Origin: a virus
Lineage: Duplodnaviria; Caudoviricetes
DNA length: 33,348 nt
Reading direction: 5' to 3' (one strand)
IMG/VR virus record: IMGVR_UViG_3300033565_000069
Coordinates: 1 to 33,348 of that record
Every line of letters starts with the position of its first letter. Position 1 is the first letter of the stretch. Of the stretch, positions 11,796 through 21,627 are shown piece after piece. The position numbers were made by a program, and so were the translations under genes. The notes under the pieces were generated by a model, which worked only from the letters and a program-made list of their open reading frames with translations, made no database searches and was not told the DNA's origin.

Positions 11796-12977
11796 TTACT
11801 TGATTGAACACAAGTAGACACTTGGTTCAAAATTCAGTAAATCTTGTATATGACTATGTAGAATATAATAACTCGCAGTCATTTGCTCAACATTCAACTC
11901 ATAAACTCGATATATGAAATACTTGCTATCATCCTGCCTTATTCGTTCAAGTTCATTAGCAGTGAGATAGAACGGTTCGTTTTTACTGCCTGTTGTTGAC
12001 TTAACTTCGATGTAAATTTCTTCACCATTTTGATCATACGATAGAATATCATAGCCAAGGCCATCTCCCTCGGTGACTGATCTCCAGATTGGTTCAAGAT
12101 TACTACCATTTATTCGATTGTAATCCGCTAATTTTTCCACCTCATTATTCAAGATAATCTCTTCAGCCAACTTCCCACGTAATGTTTTTTCCTCATTATC
12201 TTTAATATGATCGATAATTCTTCCCCTGAATTGAGAAACAGTAGCTTTCTTCTTTATTCCTTTGGGGACTGGTTCATTGACTAGGGTGAACTTCCTTGCA
12301 TCTACTTCCACTGGAATAGGTTTATTGTCAGGAGTGCTTAATATTTTCGATATCGAGTTTACTGCTGCTGTTTTGTTTATTTTCGATTTCAACTTATTGA
12401 AGACTTCAATTGTAGTCGAAAGATCCAACATCAGTTGCTTGTCTGTAGGTAAATCTTCGATCAGATATTTATATCCCCATACATGAGAAACTTGATATCC
12501 CAATGCATTTGTATCTTTACTGTTTGACGTTAGGTGGATTGAGTTTACGCCTCTCATATCCCTTAACTCATCTGAGATCAAATTCCTCCATTCATTAGCA
12601 ACTCGTCCTGCAGCTTCAAGCTTTAGAGCTGTTTTATGAAGATTTCTGTTTTCTGCATAGGGCGTCCAGGCCTGATTAATGCTTAAATACAAATACTTTC
12701 GCTGGTCATCAAAAAGATAGACAATATAGTAACCTTCACTTGCTTTTGAGGTTACATCTAAATCGAAAATGCAGATCCAAGGATTGAACGTCCACTGTCC
12801 TTGTCCGCATGAGCCTTTTACTTTTAGTCTCTTATCTGCAACAACATTATACTTTCTTATTTGCTCCGGTATCTCCTTAACTAGCAAAGTATAAGTGCTT
12901 GATGATGGATCACCAAAGCTCATGTTTCTTCTTTCATTGTCATAATTCTGCGAAAACTTAATGATTTCGTCCCTCAT
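11796..12977 (-). CDS. DUF3578 (McrB-N-like) + DUF3883 PD-(D/E)XK nuclease; putative type IV restriction enzyme
   Basis: KGSCGQGQWTFNPWICIFD...EGYYIVYLF...YLSINQ N-terminus; GDGLGYDILS...YIEVKST...FYLTANE...YFIYRV C-terminus. Confidence 0.85.
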   Translation of the reverse strand: MRDEIIKFSQNYDNERRNMSFGDPSSSTYTLLVKEIPEQIRKYNVVADKRLKVKGSCGQGQWTFNPWICIFDLDVTSKASEGYYIVYLFDDQRKYLYLSINQAWTPYAENRNLHKTALKLEAAGRVANEWRNLISDELRDMRGVNSIHLTSNSKDTNALGYQVSHVWGYKYLIEDLPTDKQLMLDLSTTIEVFNKLKSKINKTAAVNSISKILSTPDNKPIPVEVDARKFTLVNEPVPKGIKKKATVSQFRGRIIDHIKDNEEKTLRGKLAEEIILNNEVEKLADYNRINGSNLEPIWRSVTEGDGLGYDILSYDQNGEEIYIEVKSTTGSKNEPFYLTANELERIRQDDSKYFIYRVYELNVEQMTASYYILHSHIQDLLNFEPSVYLCSIK

Positions 12978-13060: not shown

Positions 13061-13633
13061 CTATCTTACACGATTAATAAGTTTCTCGAATAGTAGTGTA
13101 GTAGCAATTGCATCATGCAAAGCGCTATGTCTTTTCTCAACTTTGATATCGAGTAATTGAAACACTTTGGACGAACTTGCGATATCAACATCCATAATCC
13201 CGGAGATATTAAGGAATTGAACTATTGAATATGTATCTATGCTCCTATGAGAGAATAAGTTGCTAAATGATCTATCGTTTTGAATAAAGAATTGCTTAAG
13301 GAAGTTGATATCGAATTGCACGTTATGTCCTGCAATAATGATCTTGTAATCACTTGGAAAATTCTTTCTACAGAATTCGATGAACGATTTCAATGCTTGA
13401 CTGGGTTCTATAGCCTTTAAATCGTGTTGACTTTGTTCGAATTTGTTGATTCTTTGTGCCTCATTAGTGACCACATAGCTTTCGTGCTTAATGAACAACT
13501 CTTTTTGATCGATGATTCCTTTGTTAGCATCCCAAACCACGAGACCGATCTGTAACAAACTATGCTTAAAAGGATCCGTCCCACCGGTTTCAGTATCTAT
13601 AAATAATAGTCTATCGTTGAAACGATTTTTCAT
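13061..13633 (-). CDS. DEDDh 3'-5' exonuclease (DnaQ/RNase T-like)
   Basis: FIDTETGG (ExoI), GHNVQFD (ExoII), HSALHD (ExoIII). Confidence 0.9.
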   Translation of the reverse strand: MKNRFNDRLLFIDTETGGTDPFKHSLLQIGLVVWDANKGIIDQKELFIKHESYVVTNEAQRINKFEQSQHDLKAIEPSQALKSFIEFCRKNFPSDYKIIIAGHNVQFDINFLKQFFIQNDRSFSNLFSHRSIDTYSIVQFLNISGIMDVDIASSSKVFQLLDIKVEKRHSALHDAIATTLLFEKLINRVR

Positions 13634-14415
13634 TTTTGCTCCTTAACATATTTCGTTGATCGATCTTTGATAGCCGACAATTCGCCTAAAACATAATTAT
13701 ACATATCTCCATCTTTACCAAGGAGAATTGCTGGTACTGTACTTTGCTCTTTTTGATGGTTGAAAAATGAGATTAATGCAAGATCACCTATTTTGTAGTA
13801 GCTATTTTGAAGATTCCCTTCGAATAGGAATATCTCAGGATCAAATCTTTCAAAAAACGCTATCGATTCTACGATATGCTCAATTACCTTCTCAATAGGC
13901 ATATGAAATCGACGGGCATACATAGAGATTACTTCTTCATTATTAAAATCAGGGAAGATTATAGTTATTTTCCCGCCATTCTTATGAAACTTCTTGAGCT
14001 GATCCTCGACTCGGCGGTAAAACCAGTCTCCATATACTATGCATATTATGAACTCTTTTTGACCACTTAATAATACTCGCCAATCAATGTCTCTGAAGTT
14101 TTCGTAATAGTACTCAATTCCACTTGATACGAGATTGTTACTTAAGTTTGTTAGATTAATAACTTCTTTCATAAATGTTTTTTTCGCAGCAACCTCCCAA
14201 ATCAAGAATACAGCTGCTGTCGAAGCCAGTGTGTATAGGATAGACACAATAATGAACTTAAAGTGAATTTGATCTGACACATAAGTATCAATGGATAGAG
14301 CAAGTAAATGTAGCACAATGAACAAGACTAATGCGAAGAAGAAATACTTCCAGTTGGTCTTAACTCTATAATCAAAGAGAAATTGCGAGGTGCTGTTTTT
14401 AATTCTTGGTGCCAT
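13630..14415 (-). CDS. 2TM protein with a C-terminal alpha/beta (possibly PLD-like, HKD-less) domain
   Basis: TMs YFFFALVLFIVLHLLALSI and FIIVSILYTLASTAAVFLIW; SGIEYYY...IDWRVLL...KITIIFPDFN pattern; ATGA overlap with the exonuclease gene. Confidence 0.7.
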   Translation of the reverse strand: MAPRIKNSTSQFLFDYRVKTNWKYFFFALVLFIVLHLLALSIDTYVSDQIHFKFIIVSILYTLASTAAVFLIWEVAAKKTFMKEVINLTNLSNNLVSSGIEYYYENFRDIDWRVLLSGQKEFIICIVYGDWFYRRVEDQLKKFHKNGGKITIIFPDFNNEEVISMYARRFHMPIEKVIEHIVESIAFFERFDPEIFLFEGNLQNSYYKIGDLALISFFNHQKEQSTVPAILLGKDGDMYNYVLGELSAIKDRSTKYVKEQK

Positions 14416-15064
14416 ATAAATCCCCGTTCATTACGTTATGTTCTTCTGTTTCAGATATTAACTTACTTAATTCATCTTTGGTAATCCAAGGCCTCTTTCG
14501 GTGAATCATCTTATGGCAGTTCGAACATAGTAACACTATGTCATTGATCCTAGTCTTATAACCCTCTGGGATGTTTGACACTGGAATAATATGATGACCT
14601 TCAATATAGTCTGCCCCAATTTCCCCATATTTTTTCTCAAAGTCAAAATGACAAACCTCACAATCCAAAATACCATTCTCACTCTTTCTTTTTTCTTTGG
14701 CCAACTTAATTACTTTTGGATTTCGTTCATAGGTTAGATGAACTTGCATCTTCTCTTTACCTTCAGGAAATTCCTGAACAGCTTTTTCATTTTCAGAAAC
14801 TTCCTTAAATTCGCGCAAGCCCCATATACCTTTCCCCTTACCTTCAACAGCATAGAAAATATCACCGTGATGTGTAAAAATCTTGCAGTCACTCGAATTC
14901 ATATAAATTGTTTTTCTTGCACTGTCTTTCCATGAAGGATTAGCAGCAAAATCCATGATATTACGCTCGAATATCTTTGCATAAACTTGTCGTAATGTCG
15001 CCTTTCCACCAAGATCCTCGAATACATCAATTACTTCATCTAGCCAACGCTTTGGTTGTGGCAT
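14399..15064 (-). CDS. Winged-helix-like + McrA-type HNH endonuclease
   Basis: LGGKATLRQVY...SARKTIY...GKGIWGLR N-terminus; EGK...H..YERNP, CEVC.FDF..KYG...IEGHH, LCSNCHKMIH. Confidence 0.85.
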   Translation of the reverse strand: MPQPKRWLDEVIDVFEDLGGKATLRQVYAKIFERNIMDFAANPSWKDSARKTIYMNSSDCKIFTHHGDIFYAVEGKGKGIWGLREFKEVSENEKAVQEFPEGKEKMQVHLTYERNPKVIKLAKEKRKSENGILDCEVCHFDFEKKYGEIGADYIEGHHIIPVSNIPEGYKTRINDIVLLCSNCHKMIHRKRPWITKDELSKLISETEEHNVMNGDLYGTKN

Positions 15065-15083: not shown

Positions 15084-16457
15084 TTACTTATTCGTGAAGT
15101 ACATTTTTAATAATTCTTCGAGTGTTAACTTGACCCCAATCTTCTCAATTTCATCCTTACGTTTCAAATATAAGTCCTTTATCAGTTCCTCTGCATCAAA
15201 ACCATAATGAATCTTATTGTGACAGTGGCTGCAAAGCGATACTATATTAGCCTCAACATCTATGGAAGTATTAAGTATTCCTTGCATCGCCATTGGTATG
15301 AGGTGATGAGGTTCGGTGTAAGGAAGAGAACCTTTCTTTCTTTTAAACGTTATGTGACTTGGGTCGATCTCACATTTACCTTCTGCCAATAGTAATGCAT
15401 TCACTGCTACTGACTTATTACGTGGGTAAACCATTTTGTTACCGGATGGAACGGGCGTTGGTTTCGCAACTGGCTTTGCTATATATTCTTTTGGAGTTGG
15501 ATCTCGAGAAACAAGTTCATTTACATCTTCGTTCATCTCTTGATCAAGTTCAATCTCCATTGGACTTACTTCAGGTGTTTTTGTACAGAAGTACTTCAAA
15601 GTATCTTTCTTAATGTTTGAACTCATTTTGAGTAGAGTTTGATCAAGGATATAATCAAACAATCCTTTATTAGCAACAAAGAAGTAACCTTTTATACCAT
15701 CACCATTCTTATCAAATGGCGAGTATCTCTTTATTGGAAATTTTAAGTACTCATCTCTGTGGTTACCAGAATAGATCGGATTATCAACTTTGAAATACTC
15801 ACTATCTACTCTCCACCCTTCGATCGTCCCACCCTTACCATCAGGTTTTAGGTAGGTGTAGCAATCCTCCTTGACTCTGCTAAATGCGTAAATTCTTGCT
15901 TTATGGCTATGAATAATAAGGTCGCCCTTTTTTGCCTTCACTAAACTAGACCAGTGATGAATTAGGTTTCCTTTACTATTTCTCTTGGGAGCCCACAGAT
16001 ATTCACGAGTTGACTCATCTAGATAATTCTCGTTTTGATGCACAAAGAAGTAATTGATTTCATTCATTGAATATCGTTGAGATTCTAGATATCCTTTAAG
16101 TTGTTCTGTAACTAAAGAAGGACCCTGAACTTGATTTAGTCCGTTAACCACTAATTCATCATATCGATATACATTACTATACTTTTCAATCAATTTTACT
16201 CTCATGTATCTTCCAGTATTAGCATAATTCGTATCGTCGATCTCGTATTTTATGGAATCAATTTCCTTTTCTACAAGATCCACCCGAGTTACTTTACACT
16301 TAAATCGAATTTCTCGTATAGGATCAGAAACATAGAAATAAACACCATCCCCAACTTGGACATTTGTTGACTGTTTGAAATCAATTTCATCCAGCTCTTC
16401 GAAAGCACCAACTAAATCAAACATTTTAGGACTACATACAGTGATCCACTCTGACAT
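15084..16457 (-). CDS. Tandem EVE/PUA-like domains + McrA-type HNH endonuclease
   Basis: Domain 1 W...SPK.FD...KQSTNVQVGDGVYFYVS.P; domain 2 FFVHQ...YLWAP...W..L..AKKGDLIIH; HNH YTEPHHLIP...NIVSLCSHCHNKIHYG. Confidence 0.8.
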   Translation of the reverse strand: MSEWITVCSPKMFDLVGAFEELDEIDFKQSTNVQVGDGVYFYVSDPIREIRFKCKVTRVDLVEKEIDSIKYEIDDTNYANTGRYMRVKLIEKYSNVYRYDELVVNGLNQVQGPSLVTEQLKGYLESQRYSMNEINYFFVHQNENYLDESTREYLWAPKRNSKGNLIHHWSSLVKAKKGDLIIHSHKARIYAFSRVKEDCYTYLKPDGKGGTIEGWRVDSEYFKVDNPIYSGNHRDEYLKFPIKRYSPFDKNGDGIKGYFFVANKGLFDYILDQTLLKMSSNIKKDTLKYFCTKTPEVSPMEIELDQEMNEDVNELVSRDPTPKEYIAKPVAKPTPVPSGNKMVYPRNKSVAVNALLLAEGKCEIDPSHITFKRKKGSLPYTEPHHLIPMAMQGILNTSIDVEANIVSLCSHCHNKIHYGFDAEELIKDLYLKRKDEIEKIGVKLTLEELLKMYFTNK

Positions 16458-16537: not shown

Positions 16538-19438
16538 TTAAAGCTCAATAATCTCAAGGTGACCTTGCTGAAATGCTTTTGGATATTGAAACCACTTCGA
16601 CCCATTATCAAAATTTACAAGCAACTTATCCTTGCTCATTGAAGATACAACACCTTTACCAAATTTATAATGAAGTACTATTGATCCAACTTTCAAACTT
16701 TGGTACCTTAATTTAGTTTTCGAAACTAAAGGCGCATTTGCATCAACAGAAAAACTTTGAACGCTAGAGTCGGGTGAATCATTACTGTTCTTCTCGACCT
16801 TTTCTCCTGAGATTTTCTTAGGATACTCAATGACGATTTGATCCGTATTACTACTTGCATCATTTTGTGATGAACCAAATTCAACAGTGTTTTTTTGCAG
16901 TTCTACTTTTGTGTTTGATAAATCGGGGCTGTTCTTCATAAATGAAAAATCATTTTGGTCAATAACTGTATCAAACAAACCAACTTTCTCACCTTCATGC
17001 TTATTTATACCAGAATAATTAAGACTTGCATCCTCATAACGTTTAAACTTATAAATTGCATCATTCATTAGTGGTGCATTGAATACTCCTAAGGACAAAA
17101 GTAATTCAAACTCTGGCACGTTCAATCCGGTAACTTTTTTGAACAATTCTGGTTCAAGCTGAATAATTACATCTTTTAACGACCTTTCTCTATAGTCTGT
17201 TAAGTACATAAATAATGGGATTCTTGTCGCAAATTTGATCAACTTATCTCTAATAATTTTTCTCTTTGACTTATATTCTTTCTCTTCATCGGACAACTTT
17301 TTCTTATCATCTTGATTGAGCTTTTCAGTTCCATCTTTTTTTGCTTTTTTGACATTTTCAGAACTATTTATTATTGCTTTAATCTCCGTATTTAGATTCT
17401 TAAAATCTTCAATCTTCATTAGTGCCTCTAGCGCTTTTTTACTAGTTAATAGTCTTTGTAATGTCTCATTATCAACATTAACGAGCAAAGGACTTTGCCA
17501 TCTTCGTGCAAGAAGTGTTGCAGATGTTCCCGCTAAAGAAATATCTAGTATTTCAGCTGCATTAACTTCCTTCATAGAACTACCATCATATGCTAATACT
17601 GGCAAAAAGCTGATGAATTCGCCGACTTTTTTTTCTGGATTCGACTCATTTATATTTAGCCGACAACTATAGTCTGCAATTTGCTTTAGTGCTCTATCAA
17701 GTGAAAAATCGAATATATAGCACTCCTTCTTTATTATTTCCCGCTTCCCATTCTCAAGTACTAAGTCCCAAGGACTTTGAACCCTAAAAGCCGCTTGAAA
17801 ATAAGTTTCTGGGCTTGATAAGTTTCTTAACATAAGAATCCCAGTCCAAGGCTTAACTGTTACTCCGGTTGTTAACTTACCGCAAGAGAGAGTAATAGTT
17901 TTAGTTTCAAGAGGATTATCCATTGTCTTTTGAACAGGGTATAGGGCATTTACTCCTATACCTGCTTTGCTACCAGCTGCCACAATTATTTTGTAATCTC
18001 TATAAAAGATGTTTTGTCGTTTTTTAAGCAAATTACTCATTGCATAACAAGACGATACGTTCGGCAAAAACCAGAAAGTGTGTGATAGAACATTAAGAAG
18101 TCTTACATCAGAAAATGGCATTGGTGGTTTTTGAGATCCATGTTTAAGTTCATCAATAGTTGTCTCGAAAAACGATCCTCTAATAAGGTCAAGCCACTTC
18201 TGCACATAAGTCTCATATATAAACTCAGAGTCCTCTGCTTTTCCCTTTGCAGAAAAAAACACATTGAGGTCAAACTCATTAAACTCCCCTTGAAGAGCAA
18301 TTCGCCTTATACTTTCAGGTACCTTGTAAGTCATAAGCACCATTCGAGGTAATGAAGCGTAAGGGTTGTTAGTTCCAGTCCAAGATTCCTTTGCTCGTTG
18401 CTCGTCGGAATAAGTCCAGTTAAAGATCTGATCTTCTATAAACTCTCCGGAATTAAGAGCTCTAAATGGTGTGCCGGATAGAAATAGATAGTGATTGGAA
18501 GTTATAGGTAAGAAGGATTCATTATATGCATTGTCAGCTTCAGTCTCTTTATATTTTTCAATGTCAAGTAAATCGAAATCGTCATCATTCTCATTAACAA
18601 ATAGATTCTTAGCATTATCTCTCCACGCGCCAAAATGATACTCATCGAAAATCACTAAGTCCCAATTGGTTGTGTGAACCCACTCATTTTTAGCTTTTAT
18701 ACCACCAGTTTCACGGTCGACACCTAAATAGTCTTGAAACGAACCAAAACAAACAATTGGCTTCTTTTTGTCAGCTTTTTGGTAAGTCAAGCCATGTGGC
18801 TTAATGAATTGCCAGCCTTCAAAATCAATATGAGTCATCAAATCTTCTTCCCAAGCAGCTTCTACTGCAGGTTTAAATGTTAAGACAAGAATTCTCTTAA
18901 ATTTCATACTCTGAGCAAGTTTATATGACGCGAAAGTCTTGCCAAAGCGCATTTTTGCGTTCCAAAGAAACTTTGGGCTTTGATTCGAGTCACTTTCTTT
19001 AGATTTCTTGAAGTATTCAATCGTTTTTTTAACAGCATCGGCTTGTTCAGGCCTAAGTGAAAAGTTGTTCGTCCGATTTTCGAAATTGTCAGATCGAGTT
19101 TTCACCGCTATTACTGCTGCCTTAACGTCATCAACTGTACACTTGAACCACTCTCCACCAACACGAGAGACATGCTTCAGTTTTAGAATTCGATGAACAT
19201 CATGATCAGTAAACGATGTACCATCACTATACATTGCCGATTCACGATAAACTATTTTATAAGGTGCTTTACCATCAGGTCTTTTTGTTGGATATTGTTG
19301 TGCAACTCTCTTCTCAACATCGACTAAAGTATAACCTATCTTTAAAAAACCCGCATACTCCGGATTAGAATCCTTATATGCATAAATCATTGGATTCACT
19401 TTAGGTCGAAGTGGGAAATAACTCTTACTTGCCATCAT
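16538..19438 (-). CDS. Restriction subunit: GIY-YIG/T5orf172 nuclease + SF2 (ResIII-like) helicase + C-terminal Tudor-like domain
   Basis: IYAY...LKIGYT...RVAQQ...GEWF; AKMRFGKT Walker A; FDEYH; LSGTP; YFQAAFRVQ. Confidence 0.88.
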   Translation of the reverse strand: MMASKSYFPLRPKVNPMIYAYKDSNPEYAGFLKIGYTLVDVEKRVAQQYPTKRPDGKAPYKIVYRESAMYSDGTSFTDHDVHRILKLKHVSRVGGEWFKCTVDDVKAAVIAVKTRSDNFENRTNNFSLRPEQADAVKKTIEYFKKSKESDSNQSPKFLWNAKMRFGKTFASYKLAQSMKFKRILVLTFKPAVEAAWEEDLMTHIDFEGWQFIKPHGLTYQKADKKKPIVCFGSFQDYLGVDRETGGIKAKNEWVHTTNWDLVIFDEYHFGAWRDNAKNLFVNENDDDFDLLDIEKYKETEADNAYNESFLPITSNHYLFLSGTPFRALNSGEFIEDQIFNWTYSDEQRAKESWTGTNNPYASLPRMVLMTYKVPESIRRIALQGEFNEFDLNVFFSAKGKAEDSEFIYETYVQKWLDLIRGSFFETTIDELKHGSQKPPMPFSDVRLLNVLSHTFWFLPNVSSCYAMSNLLKKRQNIFYRDYKIIVAAGSKAGIGVNALYPVQKTMDNPLETKTITLSCGKLTTGVTVKPWTGILMLRNLSSPETYFQAAFRVQSPWDLVLENGKREIIKKECYIFDFSLDRALKQIADYSCRLNINESNPEKKVGEFISFLPVLAYDGSSMKEVNAAEILDISLAGTSATLLARRWQSPLLVNVDNETLQRLLTSKKALEALMKIEDFKNLNTEIKAIINSSENVKKAKKDGTEKLNQDDKKKLSDEEKEYKSKRKIIRDKLIKFATRIPLFMYLTDYRERSLKDVIIQLEPELFKKVTGLNVPEFELLLSLGVFNAPLMNDAIYKFKRYEDASLNYSGINKHEGEKVGLFDTVIDQNDFSFMKNSPDLSNTKVELQKNTVEFGSSQNDASSNTDQIVIEYPKKISGEKVEKNSNDSPDSSVQSFSVDANAPLVSKTKLRYQSLKVGSIVLHYKFGKGVVSSMSKDKLLVNFDNGSKWFQYPKAFQQGHLEIIEL

Positions 19439-20960
19439 TTACTTCCCCAGACTCAATAGGCTTAATTATCTGCTCAATAAACAGAATTTCTTCATCCGAA
19501 AGATTATATTTTTTGTACAAGTCTGAATCTGTCCATGTTCTTGAGAAGTCAAGTTTTGGGACAAAGCAAAATTTATCTTTTGAAATGTGAATCGATGAAA
19601 TTGCTTGTAACAAAAGAAATCGTGCGAATTTTGACTGCAAGTAAACCGACAGGTTTGCTGCCTCTTTATGATCGCTAAAGTTACCTACTAATAAATAAGA
19701 GAAAGTGCATATTTCACCAGGTCCAAGAACCTTTGTGCGAGAAAGTACTTTAAATTGGCCATTCTTATCTGATTCATTTGCATGTTCAGACGTAACTTGG
19801 CTAATCATTAGTTTATATTTATCTATATAATCTAAACCTTGAGTAATTAGCCTTCTCGAAATGTATCCAACACCTTTGCTAGAATATAGCGTTAATGAAT
19901 TATTCGATTTTTTATCATCACCTCTAACTGAAGTATCTAAACCAAAGGGACTGATTGAGCTAACAATCTCGCCTAAGTTTGGCTCTTTCTTTTCTAAAAC
20001 CTTATGTATAATACTTATAGCTTCATTGTACCTAACGAGAACTGGAAATTCATTAAGTCTCCTTTTTTGAGTATTCACTTTCCCGTCATGTATATTTACA
20101 AACTCACAATCTCCATCGTAATTTCTATCCCACAAGAAGTAGCCTACTCCACCTCCTATGCTATTATCAGGGAAACAGTCTTTGGCATTAGTGAAATCCA
20201 CATATTTTCTTATGTGCGAATCATTAAGCATTGTTTTCCTAAATGAGTCTAGCCCCATACCTCCGGCAAACCAGCGAGATGGAATTATCATTGAAATATA
20301 TCTTGGTTTCAATTTCTTTGCTTGTTCTACAAATAAGTTATAAATAGGTTTAGCTTGTTTACCTGAACCACCAGTATCAAGTTGATAAGGGGGGTTACCT
20401 ATAATCACATCAAATTTCATTTTTAAATACTCCTCCATTTTTTCGATATGAATAAACTCGTATGCATGGGATTCAAGCTCGTTACTTCTACTATATTCTG
20501 ACTTTGGTGCACCACAGAATATACACTTTTCTTTTTCCCACTTATGGTTGATTCTAGAATAGCTAATGTTTCCAGATGGTGTTGAAAAAACTGAAACCGA
20601 GTATTTGCTATTTGGATATTTAGAGCAATAAAGACTTCTTCTACTTAAGAGTGAAGTCAATTCTGTTATCGCGTAGCCAAAAATCTGATTCTTGTAAATA
20701 TGCTCGATTCTATCTTGAAGTTCTGGTATTTCTTTTTGAAGTCCTACTAGCAATCTTTTGGCAATTTCGCGTAAAAATACTCCCGACTTACACGCAGGAT
20801 CAAGAAACCGAACATTTCTATCGCTCCATATTTCTGATGGCAACATATCGAGGATGTTATTAACTATTTCAGGTGTAGTAAATACTTCATCACTACTAAG
20901 ATTAGCAATGCAAGACAAGATGTCAGGATTGTATGTATTTGTGTAAAAATCATTAGTCAT
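19425..20960 (-). CDS. Eco57I-family N6-adenine methyltransferase with C-terminal target recognition region
   Basis: EVFTTP, FLDPACKSGVF (motif I), IIGNPPY (motif IV), IIPSRWF, DLYKKYNLS; overlaps the REase gene by 14 nt. Confidence 0.92.
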   Translation of the reverse strand: MTNDFYTNTYNPDILSCIANLSSDEVFTTPEIVNNILDMLPSEIWSDRNVRFLDPACKSGVFLREIAKRLLVGLQKEIPELQDRIEHIYKNQIFGYAITELTSLLSRRSLYCSKYPNSKYSVSVFSTPSGNISYSRINHKWEKEKCIFCGAPKSEYSRSNELESHAYEFIHIEKMEEYLKMKFDVIIGNPPYQLDTGGSGKQAKPIYNLFVEQAKKLKPRYISMIIPSRWFAGGMGLDSFRKTMLNDSHIRKYVDFTNAKDCFPDNSIGGGVGYFLWDRNYDGDCEFVNIHDGKVNTQKRRLNEFPVLVRYNEAISIIHKVLEKKEPNLGEIVSSISPFGLDTSVRGDDKKSNNSLTLYSSKGVGYISRRLITQGLDYIDKYKLMISQVTSEHANESDKNGQFKVLSRTKVLGPGEICTFSYLLVGNFSDHKEAANLSVYLQSKFARFLLLQAISSIHISKDKFCFVPKLDFSRTWTDSDLYKKYNLSDEEILFIEQIIKPIESGEVNDGK

Positions 20961-21627
20961 TGATGTGCACCTTCCTATAGTCTATAACCGGATATTCCCT
21001 AATAGGATTTGGGATAAATGCCTTCACCTCATTATCATATGACCAATCAGACATAAATATTGACATTTGTTCCTCATGTCCATCTAGCATTTCATCAAGG
21101 CGGTAATCTCGCCTTTTTACTAAAGAATCAGAAACGAAAGACCATTCAGAAAAAATAATAGGTGCACTTGAACTGGTCTTCAATGTTAAAGCATCCCCAC
21201 ATAGAATGTTTCGTTCTAGTATGTATTTTGCAGCATCTAGACAATCTAGTTCTGTATCAGTCTTGCAAATTTTAGAATAATAACTAGAAAATAATATATA
21301 TAGTCTTTCTCGGCACTCTATTACATTATCTTCTAGTAAATCTACACCATATATGCTAGTTAATGCATGAATGGCGTTCTTCTCAAAATCATACGAAATA
21401 GAACCATATCTTTCTTTCACTAAATTCAGTTTTCTTTTTAGAACTTCATATAGAAAATTTCCATTGCCACATGCAGGTTCAAGAAAACGACTATCAATTC
21501 GTCTTGTCTCTTGATCAACGAAATCAAGCATTGCATTTACCTCGCGTTCAGCCGTAAAGACTTCTCCATGATCAGAAACTCTCTTTTTGGACTTAGTTTG
21601 CTTTTCACTAAATGGTAAAGTTTTGAT
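20953..21627 (-). CDS. Short SAM-binding methyltransferase-like subunit (motif I, no NPPY); probable non-canonical start
   Basis: FLEPACGNGNF, IYGVDL, NILCGDAL; frame extends upstream of the ATG at 21531 with KSKKRVSDHGEVFTAEREVNA; AGGGGG RBS 7 nt before ATC at 21627. Confidence 0.75.
   Translation of the reverse strand: MKTLPFSEKQTKSKKRVSDHGEVFTAEREVNAMLDFVDQETRRIDSRFLEPACGNGNFLYEVLKRKLNLVKERYGSISYDFEKNAIHALTSIYGVDLLEDNVIECRERLYILFSSYYSKICKTDTELDCLDAAKYILERNILCGDALTLKTSSSAPIIFSEWSFVSDSLVKRRDYRLDEMLDGHEEQMSIFMSDWSYDNEVKAFIPNPIREYPVIDYRKVHIND

Follow-up and report, generated by a model that had tools for sequence, protein, structure and literature searches.

A two-helix membrane protein gene and a 3'-5' exonuclease gene form a conserved pair, a candidate defence module carried by a temperate phage

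We analysed a viral DNA record of 33,348 nucleotides (IMG/VR record IMGVR_UViG_3300033565_000069), here called the window over its whole length. Our subject is two adjoining genes within it. One encodes a membrane protein with two transmembrane helices (2TM), the other a 3'-5' exonuclease of the DEDDh type. A 2TM gene and an exonuclease gene form a conserved two-gene module, as seen in how often they are paired, in the two unrelated exonuclease families that serve as partner, and in one fusion of both proteins. We argue that this is a real and previously undescribed candidate defence module. With modest confidence we favour an abortive-infection alarm, in which a predicted domain of the phospholipase D (PLD) type senses short DNA fragments and damages the membrane, and the exonuclease clears the basal ligand. 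The pair and the nuclease gene next to it are these.

13630..14415, minus strand: 2TM gene, candidate effector, 261 aa, from the list of open reading frames (ORFs); helices TM1 at residues 24-42 and TM2 at 54-72, a stalk, and a PLD/TrmB-type domain at about 94-258
13061..13633, minus strand: DEDDh 3'-5' exonuclease, 190 aa (Pfam RNase_T, 4.9e-14)
14399..15064, minus strand: HNH nuclease, 221 aa (Pfam HNH, 1.4e-11), a co-oriented neighbour

An initial annotation, made from the DNA letters without database searches, had noted that the HNH and 2TM genes overlap by 17 nt and that the 2TM and DEDDh genes overlap at an ATGA (4 nt, at the 2TM stop). The ORF coordinates confirm both. A purine-rich stretch resembling a ribosome-binding site lies ahead of each of the three genes.

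The evidence for a module comes from gene neighbourhoods. Scanning GTDB with the family motif turned up 57 loci, and 56 of these are true (L026 is a false motif match and was dropped). At 45 of the 56 the 2TM gene is directly followed, on its own strand, by a gene for a 3'-5' exonuclease, so the pairing exceeds chance. In 11 loci, all from Bacillota, this exonuclease belongs to the DEDDh subfamily found in the window (the gene at L017 is split, and the 10 whole ones show 47-52% identity). It is a DEDDy enzyme of 200-220 aa in 34 loci from many phyla (33 whole, and L038 cut by the contig end). The nearest relative of the window 2TM protein, P0009 (the same as locus L061), has the 2TM protein and the exonuclease fused. 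The initial annotation had proposed a conserved pair, and this survey bears it out.

The DEDDy partners are diDNases, judging from their matches and key residues. Their best PDB matches are diDNases (9qrf at 8.8e-57 and 9f7g at 3.3e-48), ahead of NrnC. The diDNase residues named in PMC11706625 are mostly in place: of 33 proteins, 30 have H81, 31 have F88 and 27 have the terminal Y, and in 5 the last residue is H, as in NrnC. DNA dinucleotides are described as the sole substrate of diDNases (PMC11706625). A tree of the 2TM proteins has one DEDDh-linked clade (support 99) and one diDNase-linked clade, and omits L203, L204, L044, L064, L068 and exact duplicates through its motif, length and duplicate filters. 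The link between the genes has outlived a swap of enzyme fold, which suggests that the partners have a substrate in common rather than a protein contact.

The pairing can also be approached from the exonuclease side. We considered the best 80 of 352 metagenome loci from a reverse search with the DEDDh, whose profile was built from 2TM-linked loci. A 2TM gene is directly upstream or fused in 24 of the 25 top-scoring loci, the 25th being cut at its contig start, and the other 55 of the 80 are without one. A quick DEDDh tree groups the 2TM-linked loci too (Shimodaira-Hasegawa-like approximate likelihood-ratio support, SH-aLRT, of 93), with a single exception inside the group, L120. Among viral DEDDh loci, at no more than 38% identity, the 2TM gene is found in 0 of 62. 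Even sampling of 400 Actinomycetes, together with the centre genome, yielded 6 new genomes with a diDNase; the enzyme adjoins a 2TM gene in 3 of them and HipA-HIRAN in 2, and in 1 it is part of a fusion with another domain. The strong 2TM matches that were new in that sample, 3 in all, are these diDNase neighbours. An even sample of Clostridia (399 scored, 2 not) returned the centre genome and one weak match, with no new pairs. One actinomycete (L266:418-2094) encodes a protein in which a helical-looking N-terminal part of 360 aa precedes a diDNase domain.

Searched against 1.84 billion representatives, a profile of three 2TM sequences gives 903 clusters with E<=0.001. The family is spread over Actinomycetota, Bacillota, Planctomycetota, Chloroflexota and Myxococcota, and includes one archaeal bin. 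Two hydrophobic helices are present in 118 of 136 members and three in none. An AlphaFold2 model of the window protein (predicted local distance difference test, pLDDT, of 91.6) has two TM helices at 22-45 and 52-88, a stalk and an alpha/beta domain. Foldseek matches the model to the PLD-fold proteins TrmBL2, NucT and FAM83. The C-terminal domain aligns with Nuc (Z 12.0, root-mean-square deviation 3.2, 137 residues) and with the sugar-binding domain of TrmB (Z 12.0, deviation 2.9, 127 residues). The HxKxxxxD pattern occurs in just 2 of the 136 members, and S/T-x-Y-x-x-D stands at the aligned region. Since the pattern is missing in nearly all members, an active PLD nuclease is rejected. The C-terminal domain is predicted to be a non-catalytic fold of the PLD/TrmB type that has lost its HKD motif. 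A PLD-like or DUF5919-like fold had been guessed at the outset, and both the Foldseek and the Nuc/TrmB matches agree with it.

The oligomeric state had been raised as well, and modelling predicts a homodimer through the PLD domain. A four-copy model scores 0.59, and its best control scores 0.00; at least 72% of contacts are shared between runs and pLDDT is at least 74. The mark for this score was calibrated on two-copy models, where 20 of the 30 solved pairs reached it, as did 1 of the 23 single chains. The confident part of the model is a two-fold dimer through 94-105, 200-204, 217-222 and 237-252 plus TM2 and the stalk, and its likeness to Nuc-type dimers may drive the score. There are few confident contacts beyond the dimer, so no pore stoichiometry is predicted. 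Four positions are kept with both partner types: W132 (31/34 and 34/34), R133 (31/34 and 33/34), Y207 (34/34 and 34/34) and H220 (34/34 and 32/34). The pattern of the motif search does not fix any of them.

Neither Pfam nor PADLOC matches the 2TM protein, its one NCBIfam match is at chance level, and its PDB sequence search gave nothing significant. When the 136 members were compared with Pfam, PADLOC 2023 and NCBIfam, no family was matched by more than 2 of them, and the effector fits no named-system model in these databases. Its Atlas look-alikes are DUF5919, TIR-like and DUF4062 clusters, which are leads only. No match was seen among longer proteins (542-2000 aa), a weak negative. No match was found in phage or plasmid collections, and none in IMG/VR by motif. 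It must be noted that two AT-rich viral contigs (L203:1-1371 and L204:2562-3998) encode a diDNase together with a 2TM protein that is a divergent family member (E about 1e-38), which implies that phages carry the module beyond the window. L202 carries a typical 2TM-exonuclease pair.

We infer that nucleotides bind at the dimer interface, that a lesion opens, that the DEDDh takes the diDNase role and that phage swamps the scavenger. As long as the cell is healthy, the exonuclease would hold down the level of short DNA fragments. Once DNA is shredded, by a lytic phage or by the restriction nucleases encoded nearby, the fragments would outrun the capacity of the exonuclease. These fragments, likely DNA dinucleotides or short oligonucleotides, would bind the PLD-type dimer at its interface. 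Binding would switch the TM helices into a membrane lesion and so abort the infection. The window DEDDh would do the same job as a diDNase, scavenging the ligand of the effector. A shared substrate would explain why the 2TM gene pairs with two unrelated exonuclease folds, and a dispensable scavenger would explain the 11 loci without a partner. Such a case is known from type II Metis, a membrane effector with a scavenger that is dispensable for defence and prevents toxicity (10.1101/2025.11.05.686725). The initial annotation had the effector sensing DNA breakdown products that the exonuclease either generates or clears. The dominant partner in relatives cleaves DNA dinucleotides, which fits the sensing part, and we favour clearing over generating. 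A temperate phage would presumably carry the module against lytic competitors that degrade host DNA.

Several observations weigh against the alarm reading, and they are set out in this and the next three paragraphs with the rivals they bear on. The motif recovers 92 of the 145 family proteins at hand, so the sample of loci is biased. The swap of partners is, as read from the tree, one evolutionary event and not many. The window copy deviates from the near-invariant TWR..N motif (T131W, W132F, R133Y, N136V), which means its pocket may differ or be decayed. One can imagine that the family works as proposed and that the window copy is decaying or has a pocket remodelled for another ligand, such as a modified dinucleotide. 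The motif is altered in P0004 and in the fusion P0009 too, and there is a long end branch of 0.81. However, the ORF is full-length, its coupling is intact and the family residues Y128, R169, Y207, H220 and P228 are retained, while the exonuclease is about 50% identical to its relatives with all catalytic residues present. Several close relatives share the departure, so a subfamily fits better than decay. We consider a remodelled or decaying copy highly unlikely.

The exonuclease raises a different problem. The DEDDh had been called intact, and D13, E15, D108, H169 and D174 are indeed all present; they are invariant in 68 of 68 aligned relatives. It is not itself a diDNase, since those are NrnC-like DEDDy enzymes with H81, F88 and a terminal Y, and this is a DEDDh with H169. 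Its fold matches RNase T (TM-score 0.80), Cap18 (0.72) and Orn/REXO2 (0.67-0.74). By this model it is nearest to RNase T, and nothing marks it as a dinuclease. RNase T has been solved with a dinucleotide product (3va0), so the window DEDDh could make the ligand. The exonuclease would then be the source of the signal, trimming phage or nicked DNA to di- or mononucleotides that switch on the membrane protein. A diDNase yields deoxynucleoside monophosphates from dinucleotides and these could be the ligand, and a fusion would keep the enzyme beside its sensor. However, 11 of the 56 loci have no adjacent exonuclease, and neither type turned up elsewhere in those loci. This also counts against the alarm reading, but it is what one expects of a dispensable scavenger such as MisB of Metis, and not of a signal source. 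Five of the partner-less genomes were tested; two, both cyanobacterial, encode an NrnC-like protein at another place in the genome (E about 3e-53), which speaks against a signal-maker, and the other three gave one weaker match in a longer ORF and two blanks. Plain deoxynucleoside monophosphates are also common metabolites and would make a poor alarm. We find it improbable that the exonuclease makes the signal.

Tight gene coupling and the one fusion could instead reflect a guard or toxin-antitoxin logic. In this scenario the enzyme or its product holds the membrane protein shut until a phage inhibitor or nuclease releases it, and there are precedents in Hailong and Panoptes, whose TM effectors are described as held off by a nucleotide (reviews PMC13434031 and PMC13276650). 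However, the scans show no synthase beside the effector in the window. The initial annotation had seen no cyclase, nucleotidyltransferase, TIR or reverse transcriptase, and none is found among the scanned window proteins (15 by Pfam, 13 by PADLOC and 8 by NCBIfam of 71 ORFs, covering the main cargo ORFs). What is conserved next to the effector is a hydrolase. With two unrelated partner folds a direct contact is unlikely, and loci without a partner occur. We doubt the guard logic for these reasons.

The last rival is that the pair does not serve phage defence, and is a membrane-anchored sensor of DNA fragments for control of mobile elements or DNA damage, or serves nucleotide salvage. The C-termini of XRE regulators with a helix-turn-helix (HTH) are detectably similar to the 2TM C-terminal domain (E 1e-9 to 1e-11), so the domain is not specific to defence; L277-L281 are such regulators. 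diDNases are reported from integrative elements and prophages (PMC11706625). A thymidylate synthase and a NUDIX-like gene stand beside sister DEDDh genes in 18 of the 80 metagenome loci, and such an operon looks metabolic. No PADLOC match is found among the scanned neighbours at 33 of 55 GTDB loci, many of them of the diDNase type. At the other 22 there is a PADLOC-matching neighbour at E<=1e-8; these are single-protein matches without a control, from a scan of 139 of 184 candidate ORFs in which 32 matched. On the other side, the 2TM protein has no DNA-binding or enzyme output, just two TM helices and a short N-terminus. A PADLOC-matching neighbour is present at 9 of the 11 Bacillota GTDB loci, and in the window the pair is surrounded by restriction genes within phage cargo. 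We regard a role outside phage defence as unlikely, and keep to the alarm reading.

The sister DEDDh genes deserve a description of their own. The thymidylate synthase follows the DEDDh at L074:4983-7663 and at 17 more metagenome loci. The NUDIX-like gene, so called by eye, is 199 aa long, is found near the sister DEDDh at 11 loci and has no Pfam match. A second multi-TM protein of about 290-340 aa is encoded directly upstream of the sister DEDDh in 19 of the 80 loci (for instance L087:324-1217, L085:68-964, L117:4127-5002 and 16 more). Those scanned have no Pfam or NCBIfam match, and in Atlas the protein is hypothetical. It is likely another type of effector for the same exonuclease subfamily.

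The initial annotation had treated the HNH gene as coupled to the pair. This does not hold as a feature of the system, because the window's HNH is beside the 2TM gene in 1 of 85 family loci (L061, at 83% identity). The HNH is rejected as a third component on this count and is a passenger rather than a conserved part of the module. Pfam labels only its HNH domain, at residues 135-189.

Sulfur-modification-type genes (DndA/C/D, Pbe-like, cysteine desulfurase, PAPS reductase, DUF4007) adjoin 11 of 18 DEDDh-type clusters versus 0 of 29 diDNase-type clusters at loci of at least 5 kb. This enrichment is a lead only, since lineage is a confounder and so is the origin of the queries, which came from the same loci. 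The 2TM-DEDDh pair lies within or beside such clusters at L012, L014, L033, L041, L043, L060-L062, L067-L069, L083 and L095. Among five genomes that lack sulfur genes beside the pair, and that may be incomplete, DndC is above its cut-off in one; DUF4007 is found in 0 of 5, and its control gave no match either. The window has no sulfur-modification-type gene. An obligate link to phosphorothioate systems is unsupported by these counts. A three-gene cassette directly upstream of the pair, with a helicase, a GHKL-type ATPase and a 302-aa protein with a weak DrmC/PLD match, is seen at L014:1376-5811, L041, L063, L065, L066, L070 and L073, without a complete named-system match.

One can go further and combine these threads. 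The dead-PLD/DUF5919-like domain might be a general sensor of DNA dinucleotides with several outputs (the 2TM pore, and XRE-HTH, TIR and DUF4062 look-alikes), the pair might be the missing effector system of the diDNases, and the Bacillota DEDDh might be a second, independently recruited DNA dinuclease partly tuned to phosphorothioate-linked dinucleotides. As a whole this is tentative, and we would not bet on all of it being right. The pair nevertheless bears on what diDNases are for and on whether there are further readers of deoxydinucleotides, questions raised in PMC11706625 and in the ApeA preprint.

The setting in the window is phage cargo. The 33-kb record is a temperate phage that carries a block of genes between its lysis genes and its integrase. 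The block has a GC content of 0.355, versus 0.494 and 0.454 in the phage arms.

8633..21531, no strand assigned: low-GC cargo block, lysis genes to integrase (GC plus Pfam/PADLOC)
11796-12977: MrcB_N+NOV_C gene, cargo block
15084-16457: second HNH gene, cargo block
16538-19438: helicase (ResIII), cargo block
19425-20960 and 20953-21531: methylase pieces, cargo block

The pair had been placed in a restriction island, and Pfam and PADLOC agree: restriction-type genes stand on both sides of it (the Eco57I-type methylase, the ResIII helicase, the two HNH genes and the MrcB_N+NOV_C gene). At 19425-21531 the Eco57I-type methylase is preceded by a separate methylase-like ORF of 192 aa and followed by the ResIII helicase, which is GIY-YIG-like (T5orf172). 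By their domain matches the methylase pieces and helicase are a split type IIG-like restriction system. A promoter and terminator scan was at chance level (13 versus 14.7). A phage gene at 995-2314 has what we take, by eye, to be a ParB-like N-terminus joined to a DNA methylase with a DPPY motif.

We found no published description of the 2TM-exonuclease pair as a defence system, although the supplements of the Metis, ApeA and DefensePredictor papers or subscription papers could list one. The available text of PMC13464484, PMC11662680, PMC13069673 and PMC13621843 adds nothing on the pair, and our literature search found no papers on DUF5919. A 2TM-beta effector that works with nuclease products of tRNA is described in PMC13692257, with a domain that differs from the window's. 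The initial annotation knew of no named system with this composition. That stands for PADLOC 2023, Pfam and NCBIfam, but the pair in its diDNase form has been published as a gene neighbourhood, labelled 'HTH domain protein', and its logic matches that of type II Metis.

The diDNase operons are worth considering first. About two thirds of diDNases adjoin an 'HTH domain-containing protein' (PMC11706625). Seven 2TM family members are in neighbour cluster 1 ('HTH protein') of that paper: WP_029289512.1, WP_203676526.1, WP_184443024.1, WP_029108575.1, WP_225503930.1, WP_150241402.1 and WP_180903688.1. Most entries in the cluster are named 'hypothetical protein', and a few are annotated as XRE or DUF5919. 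The shared C-terminal domain probably chained the 2TM and HTH architectures into one cluster. The neighbour is called a DNA-binding HTH protein there, and in the text available to us a membrane effector is not proposed and the word 'transmembrane' is absent. We re-read this commonest diDNase neighbour as a membrane effector. In the window the DEDDh replaces the diDNase. ApeA is reported to be activated by 5'-phosphorylated deoxydinucleotides, with a diDNase relieving background toxicity, and its authors anticipate further systems that read deoxydinucleotides (10.64898/2026.01.26.701840). It differs in being described as a single-gene HEPN tRNase without a membrane part or an encoded scavenger, and the window 2TM protein has no HEPN match or fold in Pfam, PADLOC or the structure comparisons.

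In CBASS with Cap18 and Cap19 a DEDDh also adjoins a membrane protein in a defence operon (10.1101/2022.01.04.474952), and its structure 7T2S is the best PDB sequence match of the window exonuclease (8.1e-07). However, Cap18 scores 44 bits on the DEDDh subfamily profile versus 244-313 for members and sits on a long outer branch. Cap19 (locus L059, 151 aa) matches neither 2TM profile and has a weak 8xMP match. The gene order is reversed and a CD-NTase is present in the published operon (10.1101/2022.01.04.474952). The scanned window proteins include no CD-NTase and the neighbours no conserved cyclase cluster, so this assignment is rejected. Hailong resembles the module in having a membrane effector gated by short DNA, but its HalB makes the oligonucleotide that keeps HalA shut, and the partner in the window family is a hydrolase (PMC13434031, PMC13276650 for Hailong). 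No HalB nucleotidyltransferase is among the scanned window proteins and the conserved neighbour is an exonuclease, which sets the module apart from Hailong in its partner. HalA is not among the matches listed for the 2TM fold, an absence that does not exclude it. Nuc, the effector-binding domain of TrmB and the XRE-DUF5919 regulators have their fold in common with the 2TM C-terminal domain, but the 2TM protein is without the HKD motif and its output is two TM helices rather than an HTH or a nuclease site. We put this C-terminal domain forward as a new candidate for nucleotide sensing.

Type II Metis is the closest in logic. It has two genes, a membrane effector with a cytosolic ligand pocket and a remover of basal ligand (10.1101/2025.11.05.686725), and its trigger is breakdown of host DNA with no signal synthase, as we infer for the window. 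The effectors differ, since MisC is described with three TM helices versus two in the window family, and the PLD-type domain of this family is unlike MisC; we set the two apart on the published description. The scavenger MisB belongs to the HAD phosphatases and Metis has m6dAMP as its ligand, whereas the partner here is a DEDDh or DEDDy exonuclease of the DnaQ fold. By this comparison the module would work like type II Metis without being a member of it. That would extend the Metis logic, the sensing of genome breakdown combined with background scavenging, to a family that spans many phyla.

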